Made by a program: the position numbers and the translations under genes
In this document: piece by piece, positions 3,174 to 49,695 of the stretch
Layout: every line of letters starts with the position of its first letter
Numbering within the stretch: the first letter of the stretch is position 1
NCBI GenBank assembly: GCA_963758495.1
Contig: CAVWVI010000004.1
Location: forward strand, 471,587 to 535,586
DNA length: 64,000 nt
Direction: 5' to 3'
From: Oligoflexia bacterium
GTDB taxonomy: Bacteria; Bdellovibrionota; UBA1018
Notes under the pieces: generated by a model
Seen by the model: the letters and a program-made list of their open reading frames with translations, nothing else
The model's database searches: none
What the model was told of the DNA's origin: nothing

Positions 3174-4028
3174 TCACATCAACATCCAACTCACTAAGAG
3201 CCCCAAAGAAGTAGAACTCAGAGAGAGAGACCCATCTCCTATTAAAATATTGAGGTAAGGATTGAACAAGAGAGAAGGAGTGGCCTGCCAACTTATCCCT
3301 GGCTCAATATCCGTTCCATCATTATGAAAAGAATGAAATTTCTCACCGTAGAGATGACTCAGCTGAATCTCATAAAGAAAAGTAAATGCCATCGTAGGCG
3401 AGAATTGATAGTTTAAATTAGGTGCCAAATAGAGCTCCAAATTATTTCCAAACCCGTACTTGCCGTACCAATTACCTCGTAAAGAGCCATAAAGTCCTAA
3501 TAGGATCCTAGAGGATGGGACTTCGTAAGTAAGAGATTGAAAAGTTTGAGCTCCAAACAAAAGATCACTAAAATGTGAATAGGAAGTCACAGGAAAGTGG
3601 AATCGCACATCACTGTAGAGATTTAAGTTTCCACTATGAATTAAAAAATTATCAGACACCCTAACAAAGGGATCTTGTAATACCATTTTCTGACCCTGAA
3701 CAGGTTGCCAGAGCCAATACCCGGTGGCAGCTACTGAATACTCGGGCGAAATATTATATCCCACACTCAGAAAGTTTTTTAGAAATACGGGGCGATCTAT
3801 ATTGGGTTCGCCATTAAAATCAGGTTGATAGCTCGTTGGTTTTTTAACAGATGGGCCATAAAGAATCCCAAAATAGTTCGCATTGAATCTACTCAGTATA
3901 TCCTCATGATCTTGTGAGATATCAGAATGGACACTTTCTGACTCGATGCGTGGTTCAAAGTCCTGCTCCACAGCAAATGCACTTGCTGCAAACGCAGAAA
4001 TGGAAAAGAGAATGAAAAGAAGTTTCAT
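3174..4028 (-). CDS. hypothetical exported protein
   Basis: 284-aa ORF with N-terminal signal peptide MKLLFILFSISAFAASAFA; Tyr/Gly/Asn/Ser-rich; no catalytic motif recognised. Confidence 0.5.
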   Translation of the reverse strand: MKLLFILFSISAFAASAFAVEQDFEPRIESESVHSDISQDHEDILSRFNANYFGILYGPSVKKPTSYQPDFNGEPNIDRPVFLKNFLSVGYNISPEYSVAATGYWLWQPVQGQKMVLQDPFVRVSDNFLIHSGNLNLYSDVRFHFPVTSYSHFSDLLFGAQTFQSLTYEVPSSRILLGLYGSLRGNWYGKYGFGNNLELYLAPNLNYQFSPTMAFTFLYEIQLSHLYGEKFHSFHNDGTDIEPGISWQATPSLLFNPYLNILIGDGSLSLSSTSLGLLVSWMLM

Positions 4029-4180
4029 GACCTATCCCCCTGGAGAGAAAGGACTTAGCAAGGCTCCTGCCAACTTTTTTAGGCCTATAATGCATTCACC
4101 CACTTCAAAGGGGTGAGGATTGTACAAATCATCTGTTTCAAGGCTACCAAATCATTCGTTTCAAGCTACAATGATCGATA

Positions 4181-4972
4181 ATGGATCAAAAAGTAGCGGA
4201 AGAATGGTACATCGACGATCACGATCAGAGAAAGGGGCCATTTTCTGCAAAACAGATCTCAGAGCTATTTGAGAAGGGAGAACTTTCAGCGGCTTGCCAC
4301 ATCTCGAATAAAGACAAAAGTAAAAGTCTAAAAATCGTGAATTTCCTTGAATCTCGAGTAGATACAACACATTCCTTGTTTCAAACACTGCAGATTTCCA
4401 AAGAAAAAGGTTACCATTCTCATCATTCTCACTCCTCCCATCAAGATCCTGATATGCCCTTTGAATCAGGGGAAGTGTATGAAGTGATCCACCTTCCCAC
4501 TAAAAAGAAAAAAAGTAACCTATCGATCCTTTTAATCACCCTACTCACCCTAGGAATCCTCGTAGGGATTCTTGCAATCATGCGCTTGCTCATGACTCCA
4601 AAAGAGACTCCATCCAAACCCGATAGCTCCACTTTAAAAACTGAAACCTCCCCTCATAAAACCGGACTCGAAGCCACCTTACCCCTTCAGAAACTCGCTC
4701 AACCCAAGTTTCCAACTCGTTACTCCTCCCCTTTAAAACCTTCTCCTACGCCAGAAATACCTCCTCCAGCGCCCCTCGTTAATGATGAACAGCTTCCCAC
4801 TTCATCAAATGATGATGGAATGATGAATAATGAAGTGGCATCTGACCCTGCAGATCTTCCTCAGGTGGATGCTCCAGGTCCCAAGGAGTTAGATAACAGC
4901 TTAAACACACTCCCAGATCCATCTCAAACCACAACGACACAACCTATTATCATGCCACCGATTACGGAATGA
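4181..4972 (+). CDS. hypothetical membrane-anchored protein with N-terminal GYF-like (DUF4339-type) domain and Pro/Ser/Thr-rich tail
   Basis: N-terminal WYIDDHDQRKGPFSAKQISELFEKGEL pattern, one predicted TM helix (LSILLITLLTLGILVGILAI), low-complexity proline-rich C-terminus. Confidence 0.5.
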   Translation: MDQKVAEEWYIDDHDQRKGPFSAKQISELFEKGELSAACHISNKDKSKSLKIVNFLESRVDTTHSLFQTLQISKEKGYHSHHSHSSHQDPDMPFESGEVYEVIHLPTKKKKSNLSILLITLLTLGILVGILAIMRLLMTPKETPSKPDSSTLKTETSPHKTGLEATLPLQKLAQPKFPTRYSSPLKPSPTPEIPPPAPLVNDEQLPTSSNDDGMMNNEVASDPADLPQVDAPGPKELDNSLNTLPDPSQTTTTQPIIMPPITE

Positions 4973-5028
4973 ATTACCACTGAATGACTTGACGCAGCTT
5001 CAAACGTCAGTTAACCAAAGTAGTCTTG

Positions 5029-5673
5029 ATGGTAAATACAAAACGTGGGCTTTTTATTAGCTTTGAGGGAACTGAGGGATCTGGAAAATCCACTTTAATC
5101 CGTAAAATTACAACTTTACTTGAGCAAGAGGGTTACAAAATAACTCAAACGAGGGAACCTGGGGGAAACGAACTAGCAGAGAAAATCCGCACGATTTTAT
5201 TAGAAATGCCCATGCACCCCATGACCGAGCTGCTCCTTTACGAAGCGGCCCGAACTGAACATCTTATAAAAACAATTCAACCTGCATTAAATCGCAATGA
5301 ATGGGTTCTCTGTGATCGATTTACTGATTCCACACTCGCTTATCAAGCCCATGCAAGAGGGCTTCCTTGGAGCCAAGTTAAAACCCTAAATCGAATGGCT
5401 ACCTTTGGACTCCGACCTGATTTAACCGTCTTTTTGGATATTGATCCTCGAATCGGATTAGAAAGAGCTCAAAATCCAAACCGCTTTGAAGCTGAAGGCA
5501 TTGAATTTCAAAAACGTGTCCGCTCTGGTTTTTTAAAAGCCCGAGCTGAGGCTCCCAAACGTTGGATGACGTTAAAAACAGGGGACAAAACACCTGATCA
5601 ACTCGCTCGGCTTATATTGAAGCAAATCAACAAGCGTTTTAAATACAGGATGCAAGGCATTCAGCGTGACTAA
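5029..5673 (+). CDS. tmk: thymidylate kinase
   Basis: P-loop FEGTEGSGKST at the N-terminus, dTMP kinase family length and layout; ATG at 5029 (TTG at 5026 also possible). Confidence 0.9.
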   Translation: MVNTKRGLFISFEGTEGSGKSTLIRKITTLLEQEGYKITQTREPGGNELAEKIRTILLEMPMHPMTELLLYEAARTEHLIKTIQPALNRNEWVLCDRFTDSTLAYQAHARGLPWSQVKTLNRMATFGLRPDLTVFLDIDPRIGLERAQNPNRFEAEGIEFQKRVRSGFLKARAEAPKRWMTLKTGDKTPDQLARLILKQINKRFKYRMQGIQRD

Positions 5674-6793
5674 AACGACTGTAGATCAAACGAGTCAGCG
5701 AAATCCGTTGAAAAAGTTACCCGAAACAGTTTTTCGTCATCATGGACAGACGCTCTTAGGCCCTATGAAGGAATGGCAGAAGAGAAAACAAGCACCTCCT
5801 GTTCTTTTACTCACTGGACAAACTGGCATTGGCAAAAAATCCATTGCCTATTTCATAGCTCAATGGATTCTCTGTGAAAGAAGTGGCTTTTCTCCACAAT
5901 TTGACTCAAACAGTTCTTCTCTCCAACTCTCCCCCTGTAATCAATGCTCTTCTTGTCTAAAAATACTCTCTGGGAATCAAGTGGATCTCGTGGAGATCTC
6001 TTCTGAAACAGATGATGAATCAGCCCAGACCTCTGGCTCCCTGAAGATTGATCAATTCCGAAAACTCAAGAACTCCACCGGCTTCGGAGCGCATGAAAGT
6101 CAGTTTAGGATGATACTCATCCCACACTCAGACCGAATGACCCCTCAGGCCTCCAACTCTGTTCTCAAACTTTTAGAAGAGACTCCTCCAGGATGGATTT
6201 TCATCCTCACAGCGAATGACCCCACACTGCTCCTCCCTACTTTAGTTTCTCGATGCCAGATTCTTCGACTCAAACCATTTTCTACAGACGAAATTCAAGA
6301 ACTCTTGAAAGCAAATGGAATAGACGGAGTAAAATGTAAGATTTGTGCAAATCTTGCGCAAGGGAGCTGGAGTCGAGCTCTCTCCTTTGCGCAACCCGAA
6401 ATCTGGGAAAAAAGGCAGGTATTTTTTCAATTTTTAATGAATCCCACTACTGCTATCCAGTCTCTCATCGATTGGTGTTCTCAAGATTCTTCAAATTTAT
6501 TCATACTTTTAGATATAATCGAACAACTCAGTGCCGATCTCATTCGTTGGACCACTTCAGAGAATCTCCCCTCTCTCGAAAACTATTCGTGGACCAATAT
6601 AGATGGTAAAGACGCTCTCTCATTTCATGTTAAACAAGTCCTGCGCCACAGAGGAGGAATCCAAGCTGCAAGAGATTTCTGGATCGAGCGTGTGGAGCAG
6701 CTCGCTCAAGCCAGACAAGAGCTACTAGCCCCCATCAACCGAAAACTTTTAATTCAAAACTTACTCCTTCCATGGATCGGAGCTGCTTCATGA
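5666..6793 (+). CDS. holB: DNA polymerase III delta-prime subunit (clamp-loader AAA+ protein)
   Basis: Walker A LLLTGQTGIGKKS, Cys-rich zinc module CNQCSSC, conserved tmk-holB synteny; GTG start overlapping the tmk end. Confidence 0.75.
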   Translation: MTKTTVDQTSQRNPLKKLPETVFRHHGQTLLGPMKEWQKRKQAPPVLLLTGQTGIGKKSIAYFIAQWILCERSGFSPQFDSNSSSLQLSPCNQCSSCLKILSGNQVDLVEISSETDDESAQTSGSLKIDQFRKLKNSTGFGAHESQFRMILIPHSDRMTPQASNSVLKLLEETPPGWIFILTANDPTLLLPTLVSRCQILRLKPFSTDEIQELLKANGIDGVKCKICANLAQGSWSRALSFAQPEIWEKRQVFFQFLMNPTTAIQSLIDWCSQDSSNLFILLDIIEQLSADLIRWTTSENLPSLENYSWTNIDGKDALSFHVKQVLRHRGGIQAARDFWIERVEQLAQARQELLAPINRKLLIQNLLLPWIGAAS

Positions 6794-7497
6794 TTTCCGT
6801 ATCCCAAGTAAGCAAAAAATTTCAGGAAAACTGGATTTTTAGAAACCTATCTTTGGAGATCAATGATCAAGAATCCGTGGTGCTCATTGGTCCATCTGGC
6901 GGTGGAAAGAGTCTTCTCTTAAAAATGATTGCGGGACTGATCACTCCAGACGAAGGGAGCGTCACTTTAAAGAATCAAAATATTGGAATGTTATTTCAAA
7001 AAAATGCACTTTTTGATTCATTTACTGTAGAAGAAAACCTTTTATTCCCCTTAAGAGAGAGAATGGGAATCACAGGAGCACCCGCTCAAGAAAAAGCTGC
7101 ACGCTTTTTAACTGCAGTAGGTTTGAAAGGATGTGAGGATCTTCTTCCAGATGAAATTTCTGGAGGCATGCAAAAAAGACTGGGAATTGCTCGCGCGCTC
7201 ATTGTCGAGCCCGAACTGATCCTTTACGATGAACCCACAGCCGGACTCGACCCCATCACTTCGAAAACCATAGCAGATTTAATTAAGTCTTTACGTATTG
7301 AAACTAAAAGCACTCTTCTCACCGTAACAAATGATATGCAGAGAGCCTACCAATTAGGTGATCGAATTTATTTACTTGCACAAGGGAGCCTATTCTTAGG
7401 AGGGACCCCTACTCAAGTTCAAGCAACAGATGATCTTAGAATGAGGCAGTTCATCTACGGGCTTAAACAAGGGCCCCTCACGTCGGGACTAGTATGA
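6790..7497 (+). CDS. ABC transporter ATP-binding protein, MlaF-like, subunit 1 (canonical signature, non-canonical H-loop)
   Basis: Walker A GPSGGGKS, signature EISGGMQKR, Walker B ILYDEPTAGLD, H-loop position reads TVTNDMQ (Asn instead of His); ATG at 6790 overlaps the holB stop. Confidence 0.85.
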   Translation: MISVSQVSKKFQENWIFRNLSLEINDQESVVLIGPSGGGKSLLLKMIAGLITPDEGSVTLKNQNIGMLFQKNALFDSFTVEENLLFPLRERMGITGAPAQEKAARFLTAVGLKGCEDLLPDEISGGMQKRLGIARALIVEPELILYDEPTAGLDPITSKTIADLIKSLRIETKSTLLTVTNDMQRAYQLGDRIYLLAQGSLFLGGTPTQVQATDDLRMRQFIYGLKQGPLTSGLV

Positions 7498-8288
7498 GTA
7501 TTTACTTTGAGAAGGTGACTAAATCATTTGGTTCAAAAACTATTCTTCGTGACGTTTCCTTTCAAGTGGCCACGGGAGAAATCCTCTTTATTTTAGGTAA
7601 AAGTGGCATGGGAAAATCAGTGACCCTCAAGCATATTGTAGGAGTCATGAAGCCTGACTCAGGTCGTGTCTTTGTAGATCAAGAAGATGTCACTCTACTT
7701 CGAGAAAATGATCTCGCTCGTATTCGCAGAAAATGCGGAATGGTATTCCAGCAGCCGGCTTTATTAGATTCCCTCTCTATCTATGATAATGTTGCATTTG
7801 GCTTGAAAACAACTCAATACACCCAAAGTATCTCACGATCATTGACTGAAAGCGAAATCACAAAAAAAGTGATTGAGAAACTCGCCTTAGTCAATCTCGG
7901 TCCAGAGATCCTTTCCCGGTTTCCACCCGAGATCTCTTACGGAATGCAAAAACGAGTTTCACTCGCAAGAACACTCGCACCTGACCCTACTTATCTTTTA
8001 TTTGATGAACCCACAACTGGACTTGACCCCATCACCACAAACGCCGTGAATGAGCTCATTTTAAACTTATCTAGAAAACTTCGGGTAACCAGTGTAGTCG
8101 TATCGCACGATATGGCATGTGCTTTAAAAATTGCAGATCAAATTTTAGTCCTCGATCAAGCCCGCATCTTAGCCCATGCGCCAGTTTCAGTGATTAAAAA
8201 GTCTCGAGAGCCTCTCATTCAGGAATTTCTTTCTGAAACATTGGCTCTCCTCTCCCCTGAAGATCGAAGGGACGATTCTCATTTATGA
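7494..8288 (+). CDS. ABC transporter ATP-binding protein, MlaF-like, subunit 2 (degenerate signature, canonical H-loop)
   Basis: Walker A GKSGMGKS, signature reads EISYGMQKR (Gly to Tyr), Walker B LLFDEPTTGLD, H-loop VVSHDMA; ATGA overlap with the upstream gene. Confidence 0.85.
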   Translation: MSIYFEKVTKSFGSKTILRDVSFQVATGEILFILGKSGMGKSVTLKHIVGVMKPDSGRVFVDQEDVTLLRENDLARIRRKCGMVFQQPALLDSLSIYDNVAFGLKTTQYTQSISRSLTESEITKKVIEKLALVNLGPEILSRFPPEISYGMQKRVSLARTLAPDPTYLLFDEPTTGLDPITTNAVNELILNLSRKLRVTSVVVSHDMACALKIADQILVLDQARILAHAPVSVIKKSREPLIQEFLSETLALLSPEDRRDDSHL

Positions 8289-9088
8289 ATCAGCTATTCG
8301 AAAACACGATCATGAAACTTTTGGACGAGCTCGGGAGCGTTTGTCTTTTCTTTCTTACTGTCGTCCGAACTTTTTTTTCGACTCGCGGAAATTTTCGACC
8401 TATTATCGCTCAGATTTCATTTGTTTCTTTTCGCTCTTTATCTACGATTGCATTTGCAGGAGTTTTTGTAGGAGCTATTCTTGTTCTTCAATTCAATTTA
8501 ATTCTAGCCCAATACGACTCCCAATCCCTACTGGGAGGCCTGAATACATCCAGCGTAGTTCGTGAAGTAGGCCCATTGATTATCTCATTCTTACTTGCAG
8601 GAAAGATTGGTGCTTACACAGCTGCCGAACTCGGAACCATGAGAGTTACCGAACAAATTGATGCTATTGAATGTCTGGGTGTCAATCCAATCCAGTACCT
8701 AATTGTCCCACGCCTCATTGGCATTGCTATTTCAAGCCTCATTTTGCTCATCATTGGACTCATAGTCAGCGTAGTCGGCTCCATGTTGGTAGCCTATGTG
8801 GCTTGTAATATCAATTTTCTTGAATTTACTTCAAGCATTCCCCGCTTCACTTCTTTTTCGAGCATAGCGGGGGGATTGTTTAAGTCCATCGTTTATGGAA
8901 CAATCGTTGCGACTGTTTCATGTCAAAAGGGATTTACAGCGACCGGCGGAGCAAGAGGGGTAGGTAGAGCCGTCACCTCAGCCGCGGTATTTACAAATTT
9001 TTACATTTTATTGGCTAACTATTTGACGAGTTATTTGATCGAGTTTATCAGCAACTTAGCACCCTTCTTTTATAGGATCCACCTATGA
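8285..9088 (+). CDS. mlaE: MlaE-type ABC permease, subunit 1
   Basis: Multi-pass membrane protein with MlaE/YrbE motif EQIDAIECLGVNPIQYLIVPRLIGIAIS; ATGA overlap with the ATPase gene. Confidence 0.8.
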   Translation: MNQLFENTIMKLLDELGSVCLFFLTVVRTFFSTRGNFRPIIAQISFVSFRSLSTIAFAGVFVGAILVLQFNLILAQYDSQSLLGGLNTSSVVREVGPLIISFLLAGKIGAYTAAELGTMRVTEQIDAIECLGVNPIQYLIVPRLIGIAISSLILLIIGLIVSVVGSMLVAYVACNINFLEFTSSIPRFTSFSSIAGGLFKSIVYGTIVATVSCQKGFTATGGARGVGRAVTSAAVFTNFYILLANYLTSYLIEFISNLAPFFYRIHL

Positions 9089-9903
9089 ACGCTGAAACTA
9101 CTATCCTCCCTTCTCTCTGGATCAAAGTTCTCCATAAATTGGGGTCCCCCATTCAAGCGCAACTCTCTATTCTTTGCGAAATCTTCATCCTCTTTTTTCA
9201 AATATTAAAAAGGTTTTTTCGACTCAACTGTTGGAGATGGAGCGAAATTATTCAATCCATTGTTCAATCTGGAATCGGCAGTCTTCCTATTATTGCAATT
9301 TCTACAGCTTCTGCGGGACTCGTGATTACCAATGAAATCGCATGGCATATGAACTTTGCTCTTCATTCAGTAACGATGATTCCCGGCTTTGCTGGGCAAT
9401 TCATCATTCGGGAATTAGGAATTGCAATTCCAGCTCTTTTGCTGGTCTCAAAGGTAGGGGCAGCTACCACGGCAGAAATTGGAAGTATGAAGGTCACCGA
9501 ACAAATTGATGCGCTTAAGCTGCTCGGTATTGATCCCATTAATTATCTTGTTTTTCCTCGATTTATCGCGACCATTGTCTCAAGCACCTGTCTTACTTTA
9601 ATTTCAATTTTTATTACGCTGACCTGTGCTACTTTTATTTCGGTAACTCGCTATAATTTTTCTGTACTTGAATTTTTAAATGCACTGAAACATTTTGTTG
9701 GCGCAAAAGATATCGTTTGCGCTCTTGTAAAAGGAAGCATTTACGGAGCCGTGATACCGATCATCTCTTGTGCTTATGGTTTTAGATGTAAGGGTGGCGC
9801 TAACGGCGTGGGAACTGCCACGACCGATTCCGTTGTCTCATCTACCATCGCTATTATTATATTAGATTTCGTTTTGACTTATATTTTTACGCTTATTCTT
9901 TGA
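9085..9903 (+). CDS. mlaE: MlaE-type ABC permease, subunit 2 (distinct paralogue)
   Basis: Motif EQIDALKLLGIDPINYLVFPRFIATIVS; ATGA overlap with the preceding permease. Confidence 0.8.
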   Translation: MNAETTILPSLWIKVLHKLGSPIQAQLSILCEIFILFFQILKRFFRLNCWRWSEIIQSIVQSGIGSLPIIAISTASAGLVITNEIAWHMNFALHSVTMIPGFAGQFIIRELGIAIPALLLVSKVGAATTAEIGSMKVTEQIDALKLLGIDPINYLVFPRFIATIVSSTCLTLISIFITLTCATFISVTRYNFSVLEFLNALKHFVGAKDIVCALVKGSIYGAVIPIISCAYGFRCKGGANGVGTATTDSVVSSTIAIIILDFVLTYIFTLIL

Positions 9904-9907
9904 AAGG

Positions 9908-10753
9908 ATGTACTTCGTGAAAATTTCTAATGAAGCAAAAGTAGGCGGTCTCGTTTTAGCTACGGGTATTCTTGCGTTTATATTTGCCAAGGTAGTCGGA
10001 ATTCAAAATCCCTTTGGCCAATCTGTCAATTTCTATGTCACCTATAATTTTGCAGGAGGAATTGAAGTCGGTTCTCCAGTAAGAGTATCAGGAATTAAAG
10101 TGGGGCAAGTTGAAAGTATTGAATTCTTTTCAGCCATAGATCCGAAAGACCCTAAACTCATTGCACTGAAAGAGCCAGGAAGTGATGTAACTGACAATGG
10201 AAAGGTCATCACTCCTTTAAAAGTAAAAATCTCTGTTCGAAAAGACGCTGCTGTCGGTGTCAGAAAAGATAGTCGTTTCTATATCAACCTAGCTGGAATT
10301 ATTGGTGAACGATATATTGAAATCACTCCGGGCCATTTTAAGTCTCCCCAAGTTCAAGCTGGCAATATAGTCGCAGGAATTGACCCTCCACGAATTGACC
10401 AACTCATTTCCCAAAGCTTTGATTTAGCTGGAAAAATCAAAGACATCGTAGATGAAAACAAGGGGGATATCACCCGCTCCATAGATCTTCTCTACAAGTT
10501 TAGTGGAAATTTAAACAAAACCCTCGGCTGGGTTGATAAAAGTGCGATATTTAAGACTGACCTGTCTAAGTTGGTTGGAAATTTAATCGCCATTACGACA
10601 GACTTCCGCAAAGTGACAGATCAACTTCACTCACCGGAGGGAGAGAAAACTCTCAGTCTCCTTTATAAATTGCTCTGGCGATTAGAGCCTCTGGATTCCA
10701 AAGTGATCCGAGGCTTTTTACAAAAAGAAGGTGTGAAGGTTCAGCTATTTTAA
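9908..10753 (+). CDS. mlaD: MCE-domain protein (MlaD-like) of the Mla-type transporter
   Basis: N-terminal TM anchor (GGLVLATGILAFIF) followed by MCE-fold region; last gene of the coupled operon. Confidence 0.8.
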   Translation: MYFVKISNEAKVGGLVLATGILAFIFAKVVGIQNPFGQSVNFYVTYNFAGGIEVGSPVRVSGIKVGQVESIEFFSAIDPKDPKLIALKEPGSDVTDNGKVITPLKVKISVRKDAAVGVRKDSRFYINLAGIIGERYIEITPGHFKSPQVQAGNIVAGIDPPRIDQLISQSFDLAGKIKDIVDENKGDITRSIDLLYKFSGNLNKTLGWVDKSAIFKTDLSKLVGNLIAITTDFRKVTDQLHSPEGEKTLSLLYKLLWRLEPLDSKVIRGFLQKEGVKVQLF

Positions 10754-10765
10754 CTGACTGCAATA

Positions 10766-11773
10766 TTAAAACGTAATACCGAGAAGCACATTTTTAAAGC
10801 GCTCCTCCGTGCAACGTCCTAATGCAGGTGACGAGGCTTCATACCAATTGGATAAAATGCGCTCTGATACTCGCGGCCTGTGGTGATATTCTCGATTTCG
10901 AGAAATATGATCGGCAAGCCAAATCAACGTTGCACGCATATAGGCCGTACTTCCTAATCTAGATGCGAGAAAGGGCTGGTGATGATACATCACTACCCAA
11001 CTTGAATCTGAAAGAAAACCTAGATTCCATAAGATGAAATGCCCGAAAGTATCATGAGGCATCCCCTCTTCCTCAACTTCCCTCATCCACATTTGATCAG
11101 GTAAAGTTTTTTCTCTTTTAATTTGCTCTAAAGTGAAAGCGTCCTTGTCCGAATAAATGACAAACTTTCCTATATCATGCAAAATTCCATCTACACAAAG
11201 ATCTTTCTCTAAGTTTAAATCCGGTAATAAACCTCTCGCTAATTGACACGCTATGTTTGCTACCTGAAGTCCATGCTTCCACAGTTCATCTACAAACAGA
11301 GGGCGCTCGATTTTTATGCCTTCTTCGGTGGGCTGAGTCAAAATTGAAACAAGTATGTCAAAAACTAGACCGGCCACAAAATAGTCGGCAGAAAGCATTC
11401 CCTCAATCCCATAGATAGATTCTCCTGCTAAGGCATAATGGAGCGTCCTAGATACGCTAGGATCGTCAGGGATAAGATCTTTATCATTTCGTCGAATCAT
11501 TGAAGCCGCCAGAAAGTTTCTGGAAGATAAAAAGCCGATCATACTCAAAGCGACGGCGGCTGAAGTGACGGGTTCTTTCAATCGCGCTGCAAAGACGGAA
11601 TTAGCCACACTCAGGAGATTGGTTTCAATTTCATGATTCTCCTGCAATATTTTTGCAAAATCAGTGTACTTTCCCCCCGCAAAGCGTAATTGCCTCAAAA
11701 ACTCAATTTCTGAGGGGGAGTAAAAGATCGGCACTAAGAATTCCTTAACAAACTTGCTAAAGTCTATAGACAC
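10766..11773 (-). CDS. HD-superfamily (HDOD-like) signalling protein
   Basis: HD motif ILHDIGKFVIY and downstream His/Asp residues; 335 aa. Confidence 0.55.
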   Translation of the reverse strand: MSIDFSKFVKEFLVPIFYSPSEIEFLRQLRFAGGKYTDFAKILQENHEIETNLLSVANSVFAARLKEPVTSAAVALSMIGFLSSRNFLAASMIRRNDKDLIPDDPSVSRTLHYALAGESIYGIEGMLSADYFVAGLVFDILVSILTQPTEEGIKIERPLFVDELWKHGLQVANIACQLARGLLPDLNLEKDLCVDGILHDIGKFVIYSDKDAFTLEQIKREKTLPDQMWMREVEEEGMPHDTFGHFILWNLGFLSDSSWVVMYHHQPFLASRLGSTAYMRATLIWLADHISRNREYHHRPRVSERILSNWYEASSPALGRCTEERFKNVLLGITF

Positions 11774-11846
11774 TTCTAAAATTCTAAAGGAAAGCTGTGA
11801 AAAATGCCAAAGTCGAATTTAAAGAATAGGAAAGAGTACAAAGCGA

Positions 11847-12437
11847 ATGAAATTTAAGCTTCAAAGTACCCCCGAAGGAATCGTGATTTGCCGCATCAAA
11901 GAACCCCTTTCAAAGATAGAAAGTGATCAAGTCACTCAAGGAATTGAAAGAATTCTAACTAGTGGTAAATCTAAACTAATTTTGGAATTTAGCCTCAATG
12001 CTGCCCTTGGCGCGCCCTACTTAGAAAAATCCTTACGCACCCTCAAAGCTACCGCAGGGAGATTAGGTGGCGATATTAAATACGTAGTACCTGACCCTAT
12101 TGGACAACGTATTTTTGGCTCAGTCACTCAACTCGATGTAGCCATAAAAAGTCTATTAGAACTCAAAGGAATTCCTCAACCGAACCCTGTTGGGGAGCCC
12201 GTTCCAGAAAAAAAGCCTGAAAAAGAAAAAAAGGATCCTCCGGATGAAACTCTCCTGACCCTTGAAATGAAGAAATTAACTAATGAAAACCGCATCTTAA
12301 CAGAAAAAGTGAGAGAACTTTTGCAGATTGTACGTCAACCCAGCACTAATGAAGATCTCAAACTAGCCGTAGATCATTATCGAAAACTCGCAACAGAAGT
12401 GGAGGCGAACCAAAATCCTTATATTAAGAAGAAGTAA
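11847..12437 (+). CDS. hypothetical protein, possible STAS-like fold with C-terminal coiled coil
   Basis: 196-aa ORF; alternating beta/alpha pattern resembling anti-sigma-factor antagonist/MlaB-type STAS proteins; Lys/Glu-rich C-terminus. Weak assignment. Confidence 0.4.
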   Translation: MKFKLQSTPEGIVICRIKEPLSKIESDQVTQGIERILTSGKSKLILEFSLNAALGAPYLEKSLRTLKATAGRLGGDIKYVVPDPIGQRIFGSVTQLDVAIKSLLELKGIPQPNPVGEPVPEKKPEKEKKDPPDETLLTLEMKKLTNENRILTEKVRELLQIVRQPSTNEDLKLAVDHYRKLATEVEANQNPYIKKK

Positions 12438-12444
12438 GCACGTT

Positions 12445-14220
12445 TCAAGAAATCATCTGCTGCTGCCACTGAGATCTTCGATCTAATTCTTCTCGCAATA
12501 GCTCGAGTTCTTTTTTGACATCCTGCTGATTGAGTCCTCTCTCTTCCGCCCAAACTTGCGCCAACGCTTCTGCCCAAGGCAAACCACGATCTTTACGAGT
12601 CGCGTAGAGGGGGATTCTCCTCAGATAGAAATCTTCCAAATGTAAAACCATTTCTGTACGAATCGAGTGCCTCAACTGAGCAAGCAGGCAAGGAAACCCT
12701 GCTGGATCTGAAACGCCATGATTGCCACGCAGATGATTTGCATCTTCATAAATAGAAAGTGCTTCAGCACCATAGCGACCTAAGAGTTCTTCCGGTAATT
12801 TCATACCTTTTTGAAGTGCCTCTTCTCTACAACGTTGAATCGACTCTGGGATGGCTTGAGGATTAACAGGTGCCCGCGTGCGAGAGGACTGAATAGAATG
12901 AGAAGGTTTCGGAAAGTCACCCCAAGTCTCCAAAGCAAAATCTACGATTTCTTCTGCCATTTTTCGGTGAGTGGTATATTTGCCACCCGCAACAATCACC
13001 GTACCTCCAGGCCCAAGAGCAATGTGATGTTCGCGACTCACTTTTTGAAGAATACCGGAATGATCTGTTTGATTAGAACCGTCTCCGTTATCAGATACGT
13101 TTTCAGGTGAAGCACTGGGTCCTTGGCCATCAGTCGAACTTCCTGCATTTCCCATTAAGGGTCTCACGCCCACATAAGCACTTAGGATATCCGAAGTTGT
13201 AAGTTTTAATGTAGGAAAATACTGAGTAAGAAGACCCATCAAATACTGCACATCGTCTCGCGTGATTTCTGCTTGATCGGGATCTCTTGGAGTAGGACCA
13301 TCCGTAGTACCCACAATCACTACCCCTGTCCCATAATCTGAACGGGGAATGACAAACGCCACCCGTCCATCCTGAGGGTGACTCATTACCATGGCACCCG
13401 GTAAAGGTAACTTCTTAAGATCGAAGAGGAGATGAATGCCTTTGCTTGGATTCAACCAACGACGCCAATTTTTAGATAATTTTTCACCGATTTGATCTGT
13501 CCACGGTCCAGTACAAACTACGGTCCGATGGGCTCTCAATTTCCATTCTTCTCTACCCTGAGATTGCTCAAGATCTCGGACACGAAATCCCGCAATTTGC
13601 TTACCGTTCCAAAGAGGCTCTAAAGCTTCCACATAATTCGCTACAGCGGCTCCTTCATTTTGTGCAGCTCTCAGCGTTTCAACAGCTAAGACATCATCCC
13701 ACATGGAGGCATCAAAATACCTAAATCCCCCCTTCAATCCATCCGCGCGCAAAAATGGAATATCCGCTAAAATTTTCTTTCGAGAGAGTCCACGATGAAA
13801 TCCAGGAGTCCTAAAGAGTGCGAGTAAATCATAAAGCCATAATCCAAGGGACAATAAGCCACGGCCATGAGAGTCCCCCTGATAAACAGGTAAATAAAAT
13901 GGCATCGGCCGAACCATGTGGGGGGCCGTTTTTAATAATAACGACCGCTCTGCTAAGGCTTCAAAAACTAATCCAAGTTCTGCATTTTGGAGATACCGCA
14001 AACCACCATGAATTAACTTAGAACTACGGGAGGATGTCCCAAATGCAAAATCCCTTCGCTCCACCAAGGCTACTTTTAAACCCCGCGAAGTTGCATCTCG
14101 TGCAACGGCTGCTCCAGTAATTCCACCTCCAATCACGAGTAAATCAAAAGTTTCATTTTTCAAGCGCTGGAGCGATTTCTCACGAGTACGAAATGAGAAT
14201 TCTCCCACTGAATTCGGCAT
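12445..14220 (-). CDS. glpD: FAD-dependent glycerol-3-phosphate dehydrogenase
   Basis: N-terminal FAD Rossmann motif LLVIGGGITGAAVARDATSRGLKVALVE, GLRYLQN motif; 591 aa with a Gly/Ser/Asp-rich internal low-complexity insert. Confidence 0.85.
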   Translation of the reverse strand: MPNSVGEFSFRTREKSLQRLKNETFDLLVIGGGITGAAVARDATSRGLKVALVERRDFAFGTSSRSSKLIHGGLRYLQNAELGLVFEALAERSLLLKTAPHMVRPMPFYLPVYQGDSHGRGLLSLGLWLYDLLALFRTPGFHRGLSRKKILADIPFLRADGLKGGFRYFDASMWDDVLAVETLRAAQNEGAAVANYVEALEPLWNGKQIAGFRVRDLEQSQGREEWKLRAHRTVVCTGPWTDQIGEKLSKNWRRWLNPSKGIHLLFDLKKLPLPGAMVMSHPQDGRVAFVIPRSDYGTGVVIVGTTDGPTPRDPDQAEITRDDVQYLMGLLTQYFPTLKLTTSDILSAYVGVRPLMGNAGSSTDGQGPSASPENVSDNGDGSNQTDHSGILQKVSREHHIALGPGGTVIVAGGKYTTHRKMAEEIVDFALETWGDFPKPSHSIQSSRTRAPVNPQAIPESIQRCREEALQKGMKLPEELLGRYGAEALSIYEDANHLRGNHGVSDPAGFPCLLAQLRHSIRTEMVLHLEDFYLRRIPLYATRKDRGLPWAEALAQVWAEERGLNQQDVKKELELLREELDRRSQWQQQMIS

Positions 14221-25879: not shown

Positions 25880-27058
25880 CTATCCCCTCAGAGGATGAAT
25901 TTCAAAATCCTTCTCAAAATAAGAATTTGCAGTGTGAGTTAAAATAAGAAGACGAAAAAGCTGATCCACTTTCTTTTGAAACGCATGAAGCGAGTCCATA
26001 TCACCGCGAGTAGTTACTTCCTGAGGTTGAATTTGAATAGCTAAACTTGCTGGAGAATTTCTTTTACCACCCCAATCAAAAATCAGTGGCACGCGAGAAG
26101 TTTTTTGATTTCTATAATAATAAACCTGAGGACGACCTAATCCTTGATTTTCAAAATACGCAAGTGCTTCAAAAAGCACATGGGTTCTAGCGACATTTGC
26201 TGGTGTTGCTCCTAAGTGACTCATGAACCCAGCATCGCATAAAGTGTAGAGAGCTTTTCCAACCCCACTTCGATGAGGTTCAATTCGATAAACGACCAAA
26301 ATAGCTTCTAAAGCTTTTAGATACCGCCCAATAACACGGGCGTCTTTTCTAAGTCTTTTCGCTAAATGAGCGAGTGTTGCTTCTTCTGCTTTGGCAATTT
26401 CCATCAGAATCGCCAGACCCAGTCCCCCGTCTAATTTCGAACCTTGAACTTGTTGTAGATCTCTGTAGCAGGTCGTTTCTAGCCACATATCACAAGAAAC
26501 GCTAAATTCGTTAGAATCACGTAAAAAACAAAGACCAGGCATTCCGCCTCGGGTTACTTTTTTTTCATATTCCTCAAGAGATAAAATAGCTTTACACTCT
26601 GCCTTCTTTGAAAAATAATTTCCGACTTCTTTTCCGTAGAGTTCCCGCAAAGTCATAGGATAAAGATGCAAAATCCCTATTCTTCCCGTCAAAGATTCTC
26701 TAATTCCTGTGAGTTTTGAAAACTCTGTGGAACCACTTATGACAAACATTCCAGGACGGCGATTCTGATCTACATGATATTTTATGGAATCAAAGAGATC
26801 TCCTGCTTTTTGAACTTCATCAATAATTTTAATTTTCTGGTCACTAGGCTCAGTAAATGCCTCGGGGGTATTTTGAGCTCGTGCTCTTTCAGTAAGAGAA
26901 TCTAACGTAATATATTTGCCGTCTATTTTTGGTAGCAAAAGGTCTCGTAATAAAACACTTTTTCCTGTTTGCCTTGCGCCCACCAATCCCACCACTGGCC
27001 AAAGTTTGAGTCTTTTTAATAAGATCGGGAGAATTTCTCGTTTTCTTTGATGCGGCAT
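25880..27058 (-). CDS. AAA+ ATPase of the DUF4143-type family, paralogue 1
   Basis: Walker A VGLVGARQTGKS, Walker B IIDEVQ; 392 aa; paralogous to 48517..49695. Confidence 0.7.
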   Translation of the reverse strand: MPHQRKREILPILLKRLKLWPVVGLVGARQTGKSVLLRDLLLPKIDGKYITLDSLTERARAQNTPEAFTEPSDQKIKIIDEVQKAGDLFDSIKYHVDQNRRPGMFVISGSTEFSKLTGIRESLTGRIGILHLYPMTLRELYGKEVGNYFSKKAECKAILSLEEYEKKVTRGGMPGLCFLRDSNEFSVSCDMWLETTCYRDLQQVQGSKLDGGLGLAILMEIAKAEEATLAHLAKRLRKDARVIGRYLKALEAILVVYRIEPHRSGVGKALYTLCDAGFMSHLGATPANVARTHVLFEALAYFENQGLGRPQVYYYRNQKTSRVPLIFDWGGKRNSPASLAIQIQPQEVTTRGDMDSLHAFQKKVDQLFRLLILTHTANSYFEKDFEIHPLRG

Positions 27059-39717: not shown

Positions 39718-40977
39718 ATGGCTATTTTGATTGTAGATGACGAAACAAAAACTCGAGATGCCTTGCGAAATCTTCTGAGCCATCTTGGACATAAAGTACT
39801 CTTAGAAGCCAAAAATGGAGAGGAAGCTCTTAAAGTCGCTCACTCTGAGAAATCTCGAATTAAACTAGTCCTTGCTGATTTAGAAATGCCTCATATGGAC
39901 GGGCTGACTTTAGCCAAAAAAATTGGAGAACTGCCCATTCTCGACTTGGCACCCTTTCTTTTGATTACTTCCGATCTATCTCGATCTCAATTATCTGAGC
40001 ATAGAAAACAAATCCCACGAATCGATTTCTACCTGCTTAAGCCTTTTCGAATGGCAACATTAGCAGAGGCTCTGAATCGTGCCTATATCCAGAGAAGCCT
40101 TACACGAAGTCAGATACTCTATGTGGGAAAAAATATTCCTATCTCCCTTTCTCAGGCTATTCACCAAAGCTCTCATGATACCCTTTGGACAGAACTAGTC
40201 CTCATTCAAAGCCCAACAGCACTCAAAGAAAAACTAGTCAGCTTCGCGCAAAAACCAGGAGTGATCTTACCAGGAGCTATCTTCATTCATCCGTCAGACC
40301 TAAACCAGGACGAAAAAATACAATACAGTGAGATCCTCTCAATCTTCAAAAAGACACCTCTAGGTAACATGATGCAGTTTGCGTGCTTAAGCCGGAATCC
40401 AGAGGAAGTATTTAACTTTAGAATAATTTGTCAGCTTTTCTACACACCCCAAAGCACTATTCAGGATTGGCATTCACTCCTCACGCAAATCACGATGAGA
40501 ATTCATCATAGCTGGGAAATAGAACTACTTGCTCAAGAAACTAAATTTAAAATTCAGGAAAGGCAATACAAAACAGCACTAAAAACTGCTGAACAAGCAT
40601 TAAAGTTAGATCAAAATAATTCCGAATCCCATATTACGATCGGCGAAATTCTGGAGCACCTCAATCAACAGGACAAAGCAGCACTTCACTATCAAAAGGC
40701 CATTCAACTCAATCCTACTTTACCACGTCCGTATATTAAACTTTTTAAGCTTTGCTCTCATTCAAAAGCTTTTCATGACAAACCCCAAGATATCTTCGAA
40801 ATAATCACGATGGGTGTGCAGTTCTGTCCACAGAATTTGGATTTTCTCTTTTTCGCAGCAACAGAATTATTTAAACTTGGAAATAAAAGAACCTCTAAAG
40901 ATCTTTTAGAGATCATTCTTAATATAGAGCCTCAACATTCAAGTGCCAAGATACTATTGAAACAAATCCAATGTTAA
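39718..40977 (+). CDS. response regulator with receiver domain and C-terminal TPR repeats
   Basis: ILIVDDE...LADLEMPHMDGL receiver motifs; C-terminal TPR-like helices; ATG at 39718 (TTG at 39709 also possible). Confidence 0.7.
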   Translation: MAILIVDDETKTRDALRNLLSHLGHKVLLEAKNGEEALKVAHSEKSRIKLVLADLEMPHMDGLTLAKKIGELPILDLAPFLLITSDLSRSQLSEHRKQIPRIDFYLLKPFRMATLAEALNRAYIQRSLTRSQILYVGKNIPISLSQAIHQSSHDTLWTELVLIQSPTALKEKLVSFAQKPGVILPGAIFIHPSDLNQDEKIQYSEILSIFKKTPLGNMMQFACLSRNPEEVFNFRIICQLFYTPQSTIQDWHSLLTQITMRIHHSWEIELLAQETKFKIQERQYKTALKTAEQALKLDQNNSESHITIGEILEHLNQQDKAALHYQKAIQLNPTLPRPYIKLFKLCSHSKAFHDKPQDIFEIITMGVQFCPQNLDFLFFAATELFKLGNKRTSKDLLEIILNIEPQHSSAKILLKQIQC

Positions 40978-42755
40978 ATTTTTTCTTACCCATCATAACG
41001 CTTTTTTTACTGATTTTTGTAATCGACCTCTTCTTTCGTAACAGCAGAGACTTACTCTATCGTACAAATATTTTATCAGGAAAAATTCCTCTTAACGAGC
41101 AACAGCTATTGGAAGTCGTTCAAAAATACGGAAACAATAGCAATTCCTTCATGACGCTTTACCCTGGCTTTGATTACTTTAAATCAAAAGATCCAACTAT
41201 TCCTGGAGCTATAGCATTTTTAGAAATGTCGTACGCTTGGATCGGTGGGACCGAACCTCTCACTTCTCCAGAATGTGAAAATAGGCTCCTCACTGAATTC
41301 GCCGAAGCTGCTGCGAAAGTAGGAAAAACTGCTGTTTTATTGCCTGTGAATCAAGAAGTCGCCAAAAGAGCTTCAAAAGCAGGATATGGCAGCTTAATGA
41401 TTGGACGTGAACCTGTCTTTGATTTATCTTTTTATCCCAAAACTGGAAACACTTGGATTGATATCATACCGACAGCTAAGCAACTTGATGCAAAAGGTGC
41501 AAGAATTATTGAAATTTCTCCCACTCAATGCTCCCAGCAAATCAAACATGAACTCGATGCGATCACAACCGAATGGTTATCTACTAGAAAAATGGATCCA
41601 TTAGGCTTTTTAAATAAAGTAGAACCTTGGACCCTTTCTGAACATAAAAAGTATTTTTACCTTGAGCTTTCAGGAAAAATACTAGCATTTTTAGCAGCAA
41701 TCCCCATTTGGCCACGACGTGGCTGGTATCTTATTGATTTAGTGCGAAAAAAAGACACTCCCGCAGGAACTACTGAGTTACTCACCCTTCGAAGTATGCA
41801 GCTTCTAAAAAATGCAGGTGCCCAAGAGGTTACTCTAGGTGTCTCACCTCTTGCTCAACTGGACTCTGACCCTTCAAACCCAAAACTATCAGCATTTCTT
41901 CGTATGATGTACGAAAAAGGAAATCTATTTTATAATTTCAAATCTCTTTATCAATACAAACTCAAGTTTGATCCCACAAGATGCGATGCTGCTTATCTTA
42001 TATTTAAAAATATAGAAACACAGCAGACTCACCTTCGACTCAAGGATGTCCTCAGCATATTTCAAGCTTTCTCTCGAAAGGGACTGATGCATGCAACGTG
42101 GTCAGGGCTCACTCGTTCCGTAAAACAAACCCATCTTTCTGAATTAATCAGAAATCAGTTAAAATTGGCAGTAGTCGTGCGTTCAGTTCCAAGATCTTGG
42201 CGCCTTCTCCTTTTGCGTTGTAAATTTACTGTGTCCATATTGGTTTTCAATTTAGTTCTGTTTTTTGCCACGACAGAATCTTCTGGATTACTGAAATCAA
42301 GCATTGAAGCCCAATGGGGTTACCGATGGGATACTCTTCATCAATCCCCCGTCCACGCACTCGCACTTTCTCCTTTTCTTCATTGGAATTTAACTCATTT
42401 AAATATCAATTTAATCCTACTCATTTGTTTCACTGGAGGATTAGAATATCTTGCAGGCACAGGCTTTGTGGCCCTGTGTTACCTGATTCCCATGATCCTT
42501 TCAAACCCTCTCACCTCATTATGCCTGGGTGCAATGAATTTTCCGCTGACAGAGCTTGATGTGGGGGCGTCTTTAGGAATTTTTGGCTGTGTCGGCGCTC
42601 TGAATGGGTTTTTGCGACATGGAATCATCTTGAGCGCTAGCCTATGCGGCATCACCTTGATTCAAGCACTGGTGACGCATAATGGACTTGTTTTGAATCA
42701 TTGGACGGCTCTCTTTCTTGGAACCTTAATTGGAAGACTTGCACTCAAAAAGTAA
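40971..42755 (+). CDS. membrane protein with DUF2156 (MprF C-terminal/aminoacyl-lipid-synthase-like) domain fused to a rhomboid-like C-terminal domain
   Basis: N-terminal TM; central region has DUF2156-like blocks (MIGREPVF, IPIWPRRGWYLIDLVRK); C-terminal TM domain has rhomboid-like HWNLTHLNINL, VGASLGIFG and NHWTALFLG. Start overlaps the regulator's stop. Confidence 0.5.
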   Translation: MLNFFLPIITLFLLIFVIDLFFRNSRDLLYRTNILSGKIPLNEQQLLEVVQKYGNNSNSFMTLYPGFDYFKSKDPTIPGAIAFLEMSYAWIGGTEPLTSPECENRLLTEFAEAAAKVGKTAVLLPVNQEVAKRASKAGYGSLMIGREPVFDLSFYPKTGNTWIDIIPTAKQLDAKGARIIEISPTQCSQQIKHELDAITTEWLSTRKMDPLGFLNKVEPWTLSEHKKYFYLELSGKILAFLAAIPIWPRRGWYLIDLVRKKDTPAGTTELLTLRSMQLLKNAGAQEVTLGVSPLAQLDSDPSNPKLSAFLRMMYEKGNLFYNFKSLYQYKLKFDPTRCDAAYLIFKNIETQQTHLRLKDVLSIFQAFSRKGLMHATWSGLTRSVKQTHLSELIRNQLKLAVVVRSVPRSWRLLLLRCKFTVSILVFNLVLFFATTESSGLLKSSIEAQWGYRWDTLHQSPVHALALSPFLHWNLTHLNINLILLICFTGGLEYLAGTGFVALCYLIPMILSNPLTSLCLGAMNFPLTELDVGASLGIFGCVGALNGFLRHGIILSASLCGITLIQALVTHNGLVLNHWTALFLGTLIGRLALKK

Positions 42756-48516: not shown

Positions 48517-49695
48517 TTATACAACGGCTTCGAAAGGGAAAAACTCAATCCCATTTTCTTGGTATGCTTCCGAAAATGGCCCTACTCCAACAAGCCGAAT
48601 TGAAGTTGATGAAGGGACCTTTTCACGAAGTTTGTTCAAAATCAAAATATCCGTTTTTCGGACACGAGATTCGTCAAAGATTTTTATCGCGCAAATCTCG
48701 GAATCAGTATCAATAATAAAGTCAATAGAGCTTCCTCTCTGAGTGGAATAACAATGCATTTTCCACTTCAACTGTCCCAGATTGGTTCTCTGACTCAGTT
48801 GCTCATTCAGGAACCAAGTTTGAATCACTCGATTTTGGCTCGCGCCTAAAAATCTGGCTAATGCACAGTCATAAATAAAAAATAGACTTTTTCCAAATCC
48901 GAGGCGATGAGGGTCCACTTGATGAATCACAAAAAGTTCCCTCAGCACTTCAAGATGCCTTTTGATTCGACGACTGTCTATTCGAAGAGCTGAGGAAATT
49001 TCAGAAATATTAGAAACGTCCAACCGAGCCACCTGCTCCAATATCTCCCGACCCAGCTCAGGGTCAAACCATTTGGCAAATCGCGCGTCACGAAATAAAA
49101 TCAGATCCAGTAGATCTGACATGGCTTGTTCACGCTCTAGATTTGAACGGATGGAAAATAATCCTGGCAAGCCTCCCTTTTCCAAATAGAGATGAAGATC
49201 TTCCCGGCAAACTCGTGGCTTATTATTTAAAAGGTGAATGCCACGAGCTGGATTCAAGGAGAGAGAAAGGCTCTCTGCAATATTAAATGGAAAGATGCGA
49301 ACACGAGACAATCTTCCCGTTAATGATTCGCGAATTCTTGTGAGCCTTGAAAACTCGGTGGACCCAAGTAAGATAAACTTCCCAGGGATTCGATTCTGAT
49401 CAATATTTAACTTAAGTGCGTCAAAAAGATCAGGCGATTTTTGTACTTCGTCAATAATCAGGGGTATTGCCCCCGGATATCGCAAAAGAAAATCATCCGG
49501 TGAGTGTTGAGCAGCTAACCGCAAGGCTTTTTCATCTAAACTCAGATAATGGGCCTGATTCAAATTTTTAGGAAGAATCTCTCGACCTATAAAGCTCTTT
49601 CCTGTTTGCCTTGCGCCCTGGATGGCAACGGCAGGTGCGAAAGAAAGCTTTTTTAAAATCAGTTTTATAGCGTGGCGATTTCTGGCATGAGGCAT
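48517..49695 (-). CDS. AAA+ ATPase of the DUF4143-type family, paralogue 2
   Basis: Walker A VAIQGARQTGKS, Walker B IIDEVQ; 392 aa, collinear with 25880..27058. Confidence 0.7.
   Translation of the reverse strand: MPHARNRHAIKLILKKLSFAPAVAIQGARQTGKSFIGREILPKNLNQAHYLSLDEKALRLAAQHSPDDFLLRYPGAIPLIIDEVQKSPDLFDALKLNIDQNRIPGKFILLGSTEFSRLTRIRESLTGRLSRVRIFPFNIAESLSLSLNPARGIHLLNNKPRVCREDLHLYLEKGGLPGLFSIRSNLEREQAMSDLLDLILFRDARFAKWFDPELGREILEQVARLDVSNISEISSALRIDSRRIKRHLEVLRELFVIHQVDPHRLGFGKSLFFIYDCALARFLGASQNRVIQTWFLNEQLSQRTNLGQLKWKMHCYSTQRGSSIDFIIDTDSEICAIKIFDESRVRKTDILILNKLREKVPSSTSIRLVGVGPFSEAYQENGIEFFPFEAVV

Follow-up and report, generated by a model that had tools for sequence, protein, structure and literature searches.

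The question raised by this locus is why a lipid transporter of the Mla/MCE type should be encoded with ATPases of two kinds and permeases of two kinds, and what the complementary substitutions in the motifs of the two ATPases would mean for its use of ATP. The locus lies in a stretch of 64,000 nucleotides from an Oligoflexia bacterium of the Bdellovibrionota (contig CAVWVI010000004.1, positions 471,587 to 535,586), the whole of which is referred to here as the window. A preliminary description of the window had proposed two distinct ATP-binding cassette (ABC) ATPases, two MlaE permeases and one MCE/MlaD protein, and Pfam searches bore out this identification. The genes, here named A1, A2, E1, E2 and D, are as follows, with positions being those of the window:

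6790–7497, + strand: A1, MlaF-like ABC ATPase of 235 aa (Pfam ABC_tran, 1.3e-30)
7494–8288, + strand: A2, MlaF/MceG-like ABC ATPase of 264 aa (Pfam ABC_tran, 1.9e-31)
8285–9088, + strand: E1, MlaE-family permease of 267 aa (Pfam MlaE, 9.9e-61)
9085–9903, + strand: E2, second MlaE-family permease, of 272 aa (Pfam MlaE, 2.5e-56)
9917–10753, + strand: D, the single MCE protein, whose open reading frame (ORF) opens at ATG 9908 with the likely start at GTG 9917 (Pfam MlaD, 3.1e-16)

The explanation that we favour, and consider likely, is that A1 and A2 form an obligate heterodimer in which one ATP site is consensus and the other degenerate, and which would be seated on an E1/E2 heterodimer under a ring of the MCE protein. 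An ATP site of an ABC dimer is composed of the Walker A, Walker B, Q-loop and H-loop of one nucleotide-binding domain (NBD) and the signature and D-loop of its partner, and substitutions of the H-loop His or of the signature Gly strongly lower hydrolysis in other ABC ATPases. The motifs of A1 and A2 were located at the following positions, with counts referring to the alignments of related sequences described below:

6889–6912, + strand: A1 Walker A, GPSGGGKS (G.SG.GK[ST] in 81/81 A1 sequences)
7156–7179, + strand: A1 signature, ISGGMQKR, canonical (SGG in 81/81), expected to contribute to the consensus site
7216–7251, + strand: A1 Walker B and D-loop, LILYDEPTAGLD, with Glu148 present in the A1 of the window
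7321–7341, + strand: A1 H-loop, TVTNDMQ, with Asn181 replacing His in alignments to MlaF and A2
7596–7619, + strand: A2 Walker A, GKSGMGKS, from motif position
7932–7955, + strand: A2 degenerate signature, ISYGMQKR, with Tyr149 replacing the first Gly (aligned to MceG)
7992–8027, + strand: A2 Walker B and D-loop, YLLFDEPTTGLD, with Glu172 (Asp-Glu in 76/76 A2 sequences)
8097–8117, + strand: A2 H-loop, VVSHDMA, with His205 (His in 76/76)

The alignment of these motifs is unambiguous. The best PDB chain for A1 in a phmmer search was MlaF of Acinetobacter baumannii (7d06, 1.1e-46) and that for A2 was MceG of Mycobacterium smegmatis (8fed, 4.9e-47). The TVTNDMQ of A1 pairs with IVSHDVP of the A. 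baumannii MlaF and with VVSHDMA of A2, and the EISYGMQKR of A2 pairs with EISGGMRKR of MceG and EISGGMQKR of A1. It had been claimed that A1 joins a canonical signature to an Asn at the H-loop and that A2 joins a canonical H-loop to a degenerate signature, and both statements held, the H-loop of A1 lacking His and the third residue of the A2 motif being other than Gly. The Walker B of both ATPases in the window ends in Asp-Glu (Glu148 in A1, Glu172 in A2), the Q-loops read LFQ in A1 and VFQ in A2, and the D-loops AGLD and TGLD, respectively. The NCBIfam MlaF model was the top match for A1 with 155.7 bits against an equivalog cut-off of 441 bits and, on the NCBIfam scores, neither ATPase is an MlaF equivalog.

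Since NBD dimers are arranged head to tail, all of the deviations, namely Asn181 of A1, a Glu to Asp change in the Walker B of A1 in many relatives and Tyr149 of A2, would come together in one composite site, an assignment for which the universal head-to-tail NBD dimer is established knowledge. Site 1, comprising Walker A, Glu172 and His205 of A2 with the SGG of A1, would be fully canonical and would hydrolyse ATP. Site 2, comprising Walker A, Walker B and Asn181 of A1 with the S-Tyr149-G of A2, would bind ATP and hydrolyse it poorly or not at all; binding is expected to persist because Walker A, Q-loop and D-loop are conserved, and impaired hydrolysis with retained binding is what the motifs predict. 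The other half-sites are untouched, with the SGG of A1 in 81/81 sequences and both the His and the Asp-Glu of A2 in 76/76. Given the pairing of A1 with A2, the site that joins the catalytic residues of A2 to the SGG of A1 would be canonical in every genome examined.

Conservation of the arrangement was assessed by a scan of one genome per species, which returned 364 relatives, of which the best 80 were retained for comparison of loci. ORFs were called in each of these loci and assigned to the most similar window protein, and motif columns were read from MAFFT alignments of 81 A1 and 76 A2 sequences. The retained loci are nearly all labelled Bdellovibrionota, Bacteriovoracaceae, Bdellovibrionales or Oligoflexia and include Bdellovibrio bacteriovorus Bd16 (L065) and Bacteriovorax stolpii (L035). 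A few are labelled Pseudomonadota, Nitrosovibrio, WWE3 or Deltaproteobacteria; these are contigs of metagenome-assembled genomes (MAGs) with operon and flanks like those of the others, and outdated taxonomy or mis-binning appears a likelier cause than a true spread beyond the Bdellovibrionota. The gene order A1-A2-E1-E2-D was found in the 80 loci wherever the contig reaches, with one exception (L068), down to approximately 50% identity, and a distinct E1 orthologue was present in all 74 loci with a permease ORF for which E1 gave the best score.

Both substitutions are kept in the orthologous operons, with the His missing from the H-loop of A1 in 80 of 81 sequences (Asn in 72, Ser in 5, Thr in 3, and His in 1) and the A2 signature reading S[Y/F]G in all 76 (68 Tyr and 8 Phe). 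Recurring in 80 independent loci, the complementary pattern exceeds what chance would give. In addition, the Walker-B Glu of A1 is replaced by Asp in 28/81 sequences, B. bacteriovorus among them. The resulting Asp-Asp occurs in several separate groups, among them the Bdellovibrio group in its entirety, a group resembling B. stolpii, and L010, which lies within an otherwise Asp-Glu group. The same change was never seen in A2 (Asp-Glu in 76/76), and the Walker A, Q-loop, D-loop and signature of A1 are nearly invariant. The prediction of one consensus and one degenerate site is thus supported by sequence and by comparison, and the further Glu to Asp change of A1, which had not been part of the prediction, maps to the same site. 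Asp for Glu together with a switch residue other than His in one NBD are hallmark substitutions of the degenerate site known from the structure of the exporter MsRv1273c/72c (PMC12038006).

Beyond these loci, the 120 closest homologues of A1 (67–100% identical) have Asn at the H-loop in 115 cases and Thr in 2, with no His where the motif was readable, and SGG in 117, the remaining 3 being unmatched by the search pattern. The few with organism names are all from Bdellovibrionota or Oligoflexia, and orthologues of A1 in MAGs of Bacteriovoracaceae and Oligoflexia are 74–77% identical. A search of 1.84 billion cluster representatives with A2 as query returned single-domain A2-like proteins down to ~43% identity. 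The signatures of the distant ones have drifted further (SLG, AFG, NFS, GFA), with the H-loop His and Asp-Glu always kept, and five of the six such proteins whose metagenome contigs were examined are encoded in an ABC-ABC-MlaE-MlaE-MlaD arrangement where the contig reaches, the sixth contig being too short. Their A1 partners carry Ser or Asn at the H-loop, except in L086.

Candidate fused A1-A2 versions were also considered, as the top A2 matches in the representative search (P0121, P0122, P0124 and P0125) were tandem MlaF-like ATPases of ~550 aa, with LSGGM[RK]KR in the first NBD, S[A/S/N]G in the second and His in both H-loops. The one gene examined (L081, 6001–7668) adjoins mreB-mreC-pbp2-rodA as an orphan, with no MlaE or MCE gene nearby, and these proteins were set aside as a phenomenon of their own.

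A further point at issue was whether the two ATPases might be near-identical recent duplicates, which would have counted against the preliminary description. A1 and A2 are 33–34% identical, and E1 and E2 are 32% identical by BLASTP. The identity of A1 to MlaF (40%) and that of A2 to MceG (39%) both exceed the identity of A1 to A2 (33%). The paralogues are ancient. In a neighbour-joining tree A1 forms its own clade and A2 nests among canonical single-copy MlaF-like proteins. This tree is crude and indicative only, as it is based on distances, is rooted at the midpoint and has outgroups sampled with a bias towards A2, but it does rule out a recent duplication.

A number of points weigh against the asymmetric A1/A2 heterodimer. 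Locus L086 has a fully canonical A1 (His, Asp-Glu) opposite an SYG A2, and the A1 of L047 keeps the H-loop His, yet has Asp-Asp in Walker B. With His kept in these two, catalytic loss in A1 has exceptions, and it is in the signature of A2 that the primary conserved asymmetry lies; the loss of catalytic residues from A1 is nearly universal but may be secondary, with the aromatic residue in the A2 signature as the invariant hallmark. In the Bdellovibrio group, A1 and A2 are separated by extra DNA in L065 and L070, and in L068 (5983–10479) an A1 orthologue with Asp-Asp and an Asn H-loop adjoins unrelated exporter genes, which is either a rearrangement or a different A1 partnership. Glu148 is also intact in the A1 of the window and the Asn might contact the gamma-phosphate, so that site 2 may retain activity. 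Finally, we infer the physical pairing of A1 with A2 from sequence. As to what lies between or beside these genes, the extra DNA holds a hydrophobic ORF of 143 aa in L065 (B. bacteriovorus Bd16, 6778–7206) and, in L070 (6741–9106), approximately 2.3 kb that includes a pair of ORFs each exceeding 340 aa, and in L068 two fused exporter-type ABC genes of ~640 aa, each with transmembrane domain (TMD) and NBD, replace A2-E1-E2-D.

Some of these observations would also fit an A1/A2 heterodimer in which both ATP sites are competent and the variants tune hydrolysis at site 2 and do not abolish it. The retention of the Walker-B Glu in 53/81 A1 sequences, the window included, of Walker A, Q-loop and D-loop in A1, and of a canonical A1 opposite an SYG A2 in L086 are all in keeping with this. 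The fixation of the aromatic as Tyr or Phe, with no drift in the closer orthologues, likewise suggests a positive role for this residue. The recurrent Glu to Asp change is, however, confined to A1, the H-loop position of A1 tolerates Asn, Ser and Thr, and distant lineages show further decay of the A2 signature, a pattern typical of a site on which catalytic constraint has been lifted. Two competent sites are on balance unlikely.

Because canonical Mla complexes contain homodimers of MlaF and of MlaE (6xbd, 7d06) and the pairing of A1 with A2 is a deduction, the operon might also encode two separate homodimeric transporters, A1 with one permease and A2 with the other, which share or compete for the MCE protein. 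A homodimer of A1 would have two sites lacking the H-loop His, and in 28/81 cases the catalytic Glu as well, while in a homodimer of A2 a bulky aromatic would occupy the signature of both sites, leaving no fully canonical site anywhere. Each homodimer would thus have two impaired sites, although each protein strictly conserves the very half-site that the other lacks. The ATPase-ATPase-permease-permease order with a single MCE gene, which is conserved across the phylum apart from L068, also argues against separate transporters, and we consider this alternative very improbable.

An obligate A1/A2 heterodimer therefore remains the preferred arrangement, and the operon around it is by each family criterion examined an Mla/MCE-type transporter with an MlaEFD core, as judged from sequence. 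An MlaE permease, a membrane-anchored MCE (PF02470) protein and an MlaF/MceG-type ATPase are all present in synteny. The usual one gene each for MlaF and MlaE is not found here, as there are two paralogues of each, which are kept as distinct orthologue groups. MlaB (STAS), MlaC (PF05494) and MlaA (PF04333) were absent from the operon, and no window ORF of 150 aa or longer encodes any of them. A candidate for MlaB, the 196-aa ORF at 11847–12437, which appeared STAS-like by eye, was rejected as it had no Pfam match at E<=10 and is not conserved beside the operon. The earlier remark that the operon lacks MlaB and MlaC is hence true for the operon but not remarkable, since MlaEFD without MlaABC has been reported as the ancestral core, the commonest form and the usual one outside the Proteobacteria (PMC10665443).

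The missing MlaB leaves room for another alternative, in which A1 is not a transport ATPase but a regulatory or scaffold subunit that replaces MlaB, or a decaying duplicate, and the occurrence of A1 apart from the rest of the operon in one genome (L068) would be consistent with this. A1 is, however, about as conserved as A2 (mean column identity of 0.66 and 0.70, respectively), and retains a nearly invariant signature, Walker A, Q-loop and D-loop, as befits a functioning NBD partner and not a decaying gene or a mere scaffold. It is very improbable that A1 has such a role.

When compared with known systems, the A1-A2-E1-E2-D operon resembles that of Veillonella parvula MlaEFD in having an MlaE permease, an MlaF-type ATPase and an anchored MCE protein in one operon with no MlaA, MlaB or MlaC, and in having an MCE protein that is longer than E. 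coli MlaD with an extended alpha-helical region. It differs in possessing two ATPases and two permeases with one degenerate-motif site. The MlaD of V. parvula is also longer (419 aa against ~278 aa for D), and no C-terminal beta-barrel was predicted in D. Proteobacterial MlaFEDB complexes (E. coli 6xbd, A. baumannii 7d06 and P. aeruginosa 7ch8) are the closest solved relatives of A1 and of E1/E2 and share the MCE ring protein. Unlike the present system, they have homodimeric MlaF and MlaE from one gene each, their ATP sites are fully canonical, and they operate together with the STAS subunit MlaB, the shuttle MlaC and MlaA, none of which were found in the window. The mycobacterial Mce1 complex (8fed/8fee) has a heterodimeric pair of MlaE-type permeases, YrbE1A/YrbE1B, comparable to the two different permease genes here; its ATPase MceG is the best solved match of A2, and its MCE proteins have long helical extensions. 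It is energised, in contrast, by one homodimeric ATPase, MceG (EISGGMRKR), and has six MCE proteins (Mce1A–F) and the accessory proteins Mas and LucB, whereas the operon here has two ATPase genes and one MCE gene.

The closest parallel to the proposed asymmetry is found in exporters with degenerate sites (MsRv1273c/72c, BmrCD, PatAB), in which one NBD has non-canonical catalytic residues and its partner a non-canonical signature, such that all deviations meet in one composite site and the other site is consensus. Further heterodimers of this kind are TM287/288, TAP1/2 and CFTR. These exporters differ in having the type IV fold, in which TMD and NBD are fused. In the present system the NBDs are soluble proteins in their own right (235 and 264 aa), the TMDs have the MlaE fold, a periplasmic MCE ring is added, and the signature substitution is an aromatic (Tyr or Phe). 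The consensus site of MsRv1273c/72c contains Glu553 and His584 and its degenerate site Asp497 and Gln528, and ATP was left unhydrolysed at the degenerate site with ADP at the consensus site (PMC12038006).

The permeases support the family assignment and a paired arrangement. The Pfam MlaE (PF02405) matches of E1 and E2 span the whole profile. Their scores against NCBIfam TIGR00056, 177.7 bits for E1 and 190.6 bits for E2, are both below the cut-off of 212.2. Matches of E1 and E2 to solved MlaE range from about 1e-24 to 1e-29, the PDB matches of E1 being MlaE (8.7e-29) and YrbE1A (2.7e-21). Both permeases are closer to YrbE1A than to YrbE1B, so that the two pairs are not orthologous one to one. 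The YrbE1A/B pair (8fed) is a precedent for a permease heterodimer.

The AlphaFold2 model of D has an N-terminal membrane helix (residues 5–27) followed by the MCE beta-barrel and approximately 110 aa of C-terminal helices, with a mean predicted local distance difference test (pLDDT) score of 65.8 and values below 50 for residues 159–216, for which reason it was used for secondary structure only and the placement of helices is not trusted. Foldseek matched the model to Mce1B/C and MlaD, and on its predicted secondary structure D belongs to the MlaD type that Grasekamp et al. (PMC10665443) describe as "elongated alpha-helical, no beta-barrel". Orthologues of D share a conserved C-terminal ...EGVKVxLF, and it may be speculated that this end gives one strand per subunit to a small tip barrel, as has been reported for Mce1 and some barrel-less MlaDs (PMC10665443). 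The best solved sequence match of D was chain I of PDB 13hr (1.9e-07), a 312-aa "Mce/MlaD domain-containing protein"; this entry contains eight chains of the Mce/MlaD protein with no MlaE-like chains alongside.

Taken together, an assembly of two ATPases, two permeases and six MCE subunits that transports phospholipid would be expected by analogy with these systems. The gene content, the identity of the motifs and the conservation and complementarity of these across the phylum are observed directly, whereas formation of the heterodimer, the pairing of ATPases with permeases, catalytic loss at site 2, the nature of the lipid and the direction in which it is moved are each predictions at this stage. 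In such a complex, site 2 would act as a latch or hinge holding the NBDs together and one ATP per cycle would be spent at site 1, as in the degenerate-site heterodimeric exporters. The power stroke would be passed unequally to E1 and E2, which would transfer phospholipid between the membrane and the channel at the centre of the MCE ring, this ring being formed by the single MCE protein D, a hexamer by analogy, that caps the permeases.

It is possible to go further and propose a directionally biased lipid pump that uses one ATP per cycle and is specific to the predatory Bdellovibrionota, although we regard this as distinctly unlikely. In an anterograde variant it would supply phospholipid for the rapid growth of the envelope in the replicative phase, a role suggested by co-transcription with tmk-holB in most lineages, and in an uptake variant it would take in prey-derived lipid, analogous to the uptake of host lipid by mycobacterial Mce systems. 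If correct, such a pump would be the first Mla-type system with a hard-wired direction and stoichiometry, separable site by site.

The transporter itself is of a known kind; the part that appears novel is the energising module, which resembles those of the degenerate-site exporters and is unrelated to them in fold and architecture. The preliminary description had known of no such case among Mla-type systems, and in line with this no description of a two-ATPase Mla system or of a degenerate MlaF-type site was found in the full-text literature, a search in which most subscription journals are not covered. Degenerate ATP sites have so far been characterised in exporter-fold ABC transporters, so that the strategy of one catalytic site and one latch, if present here, would have evolved independently and be general to ABC proteins. 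It would also give the Mla field, in which the direction of transport is still disputed, a natural asymmetric model where ATP sites and permease halves can be mutated separately. Such a model could help to settle the number of ATP per lipid, the coupling of NBD closure to the MlaE pocket and the direction of lipid movement. As the system is present in the genetically tractable B. bacteriovorus, these predictions are directly testable. A phylogenomic survey of Mla systems noted "several duplications" in Gracilicutes but left MlaF out of its phylogeny owing to uncertain annotation, and makes no mention of Bdellovibrio, heterodimer or paralog (PMC10665443).

With regard to the layout of the operon, two further genes precede the transporter in the window:

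5026–5673, + strand: tmk, thymidylate kinase (Pfam Thymidylate_kin, 1.3e-46), at the head of the translationally coupled run
5666–6793, + strand: holB, DNA polymerase III delta' (Pfam DNA_pol3_delta2, 5.4e-35)

The 3' end of tmk overlaps the start of holB in the ORF list, and ATGA stop/start overlaps were read from the junction sequences at 6790 (the holB stop and A1 start), 7494, 8285 and 9085. The four couplings that had been described after tmk-holB were all recovered in this way, but the accompanying claim that all five transporter genes are coupled applies to A1-A2-E1-E2 only, as E2 and D do not overlap by their coordinates. This coupling fits with equimolar co-synthesis of the subunits. 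The start of A1 that gives 235 aa agrees with the orthologues. D probably starts at GTG 9917 and not at ATG 9908, on account of the spacing of its ribosome-binding site (an AAAGGA box 8 nt upstream), the 278-aa length of its database entry and the N-termini of its orthologues (MKLSNEAKVG). In a scan of 4000–12500, promoter-like sites were not more frequent than in shuffled sequence, and terminator-like sites were modestly above shuffles with none in the short gap after D.

The surroundings of the operon are housekeeping genes (pnp, tmk, holB, glpD and aspS), and the transporter is preceded by tmk-holB in most of the related loci that reach that far, though not in the Bdellovibrio group. Downstream, an HDOD/HD-domain gene (10766–11773, - strand) is convergent to the operon and is followed by the 196-aa ORF mentioned above (11847–12437, + strand), which is without a family match. 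Homologues of these two were found near the operon in none of the 80 related loci, and they are thus apparently specific to the arrangement of this genome. Upstream, a protein of 284 aa (3174–4028, - strand) has a signal peptide but matches no Pfam family, and its homologues lie near the operon in 29/80 related loci. In L084, a divergent locus, the MCE gene is directly followed by a small OMP_b-brl gene (8103–8732). An outer-membrane partner might be sought here.

Elsewhere in the window, two paralogous AAA_14 ATPases of 392 aa are encoded 22 kb apart (25880–27058 and 48517–49695, both on the - strand), the second additionally matching DUF4143. A thymidylate synthase ORF of 211 aa (57565–58200, - strand) matches positions 1–178 of the 266-position Pfam profile and may be truncated, frameshifted or a short form. 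A 594-aa ORF (40971–42755, + strand) joins LPG_synthase_C, the C-terminal domain of phosphatidylglycerol lysyltransferase, to a C-terminal rhomboid domain, an unusual fusion in a lipid-related context.

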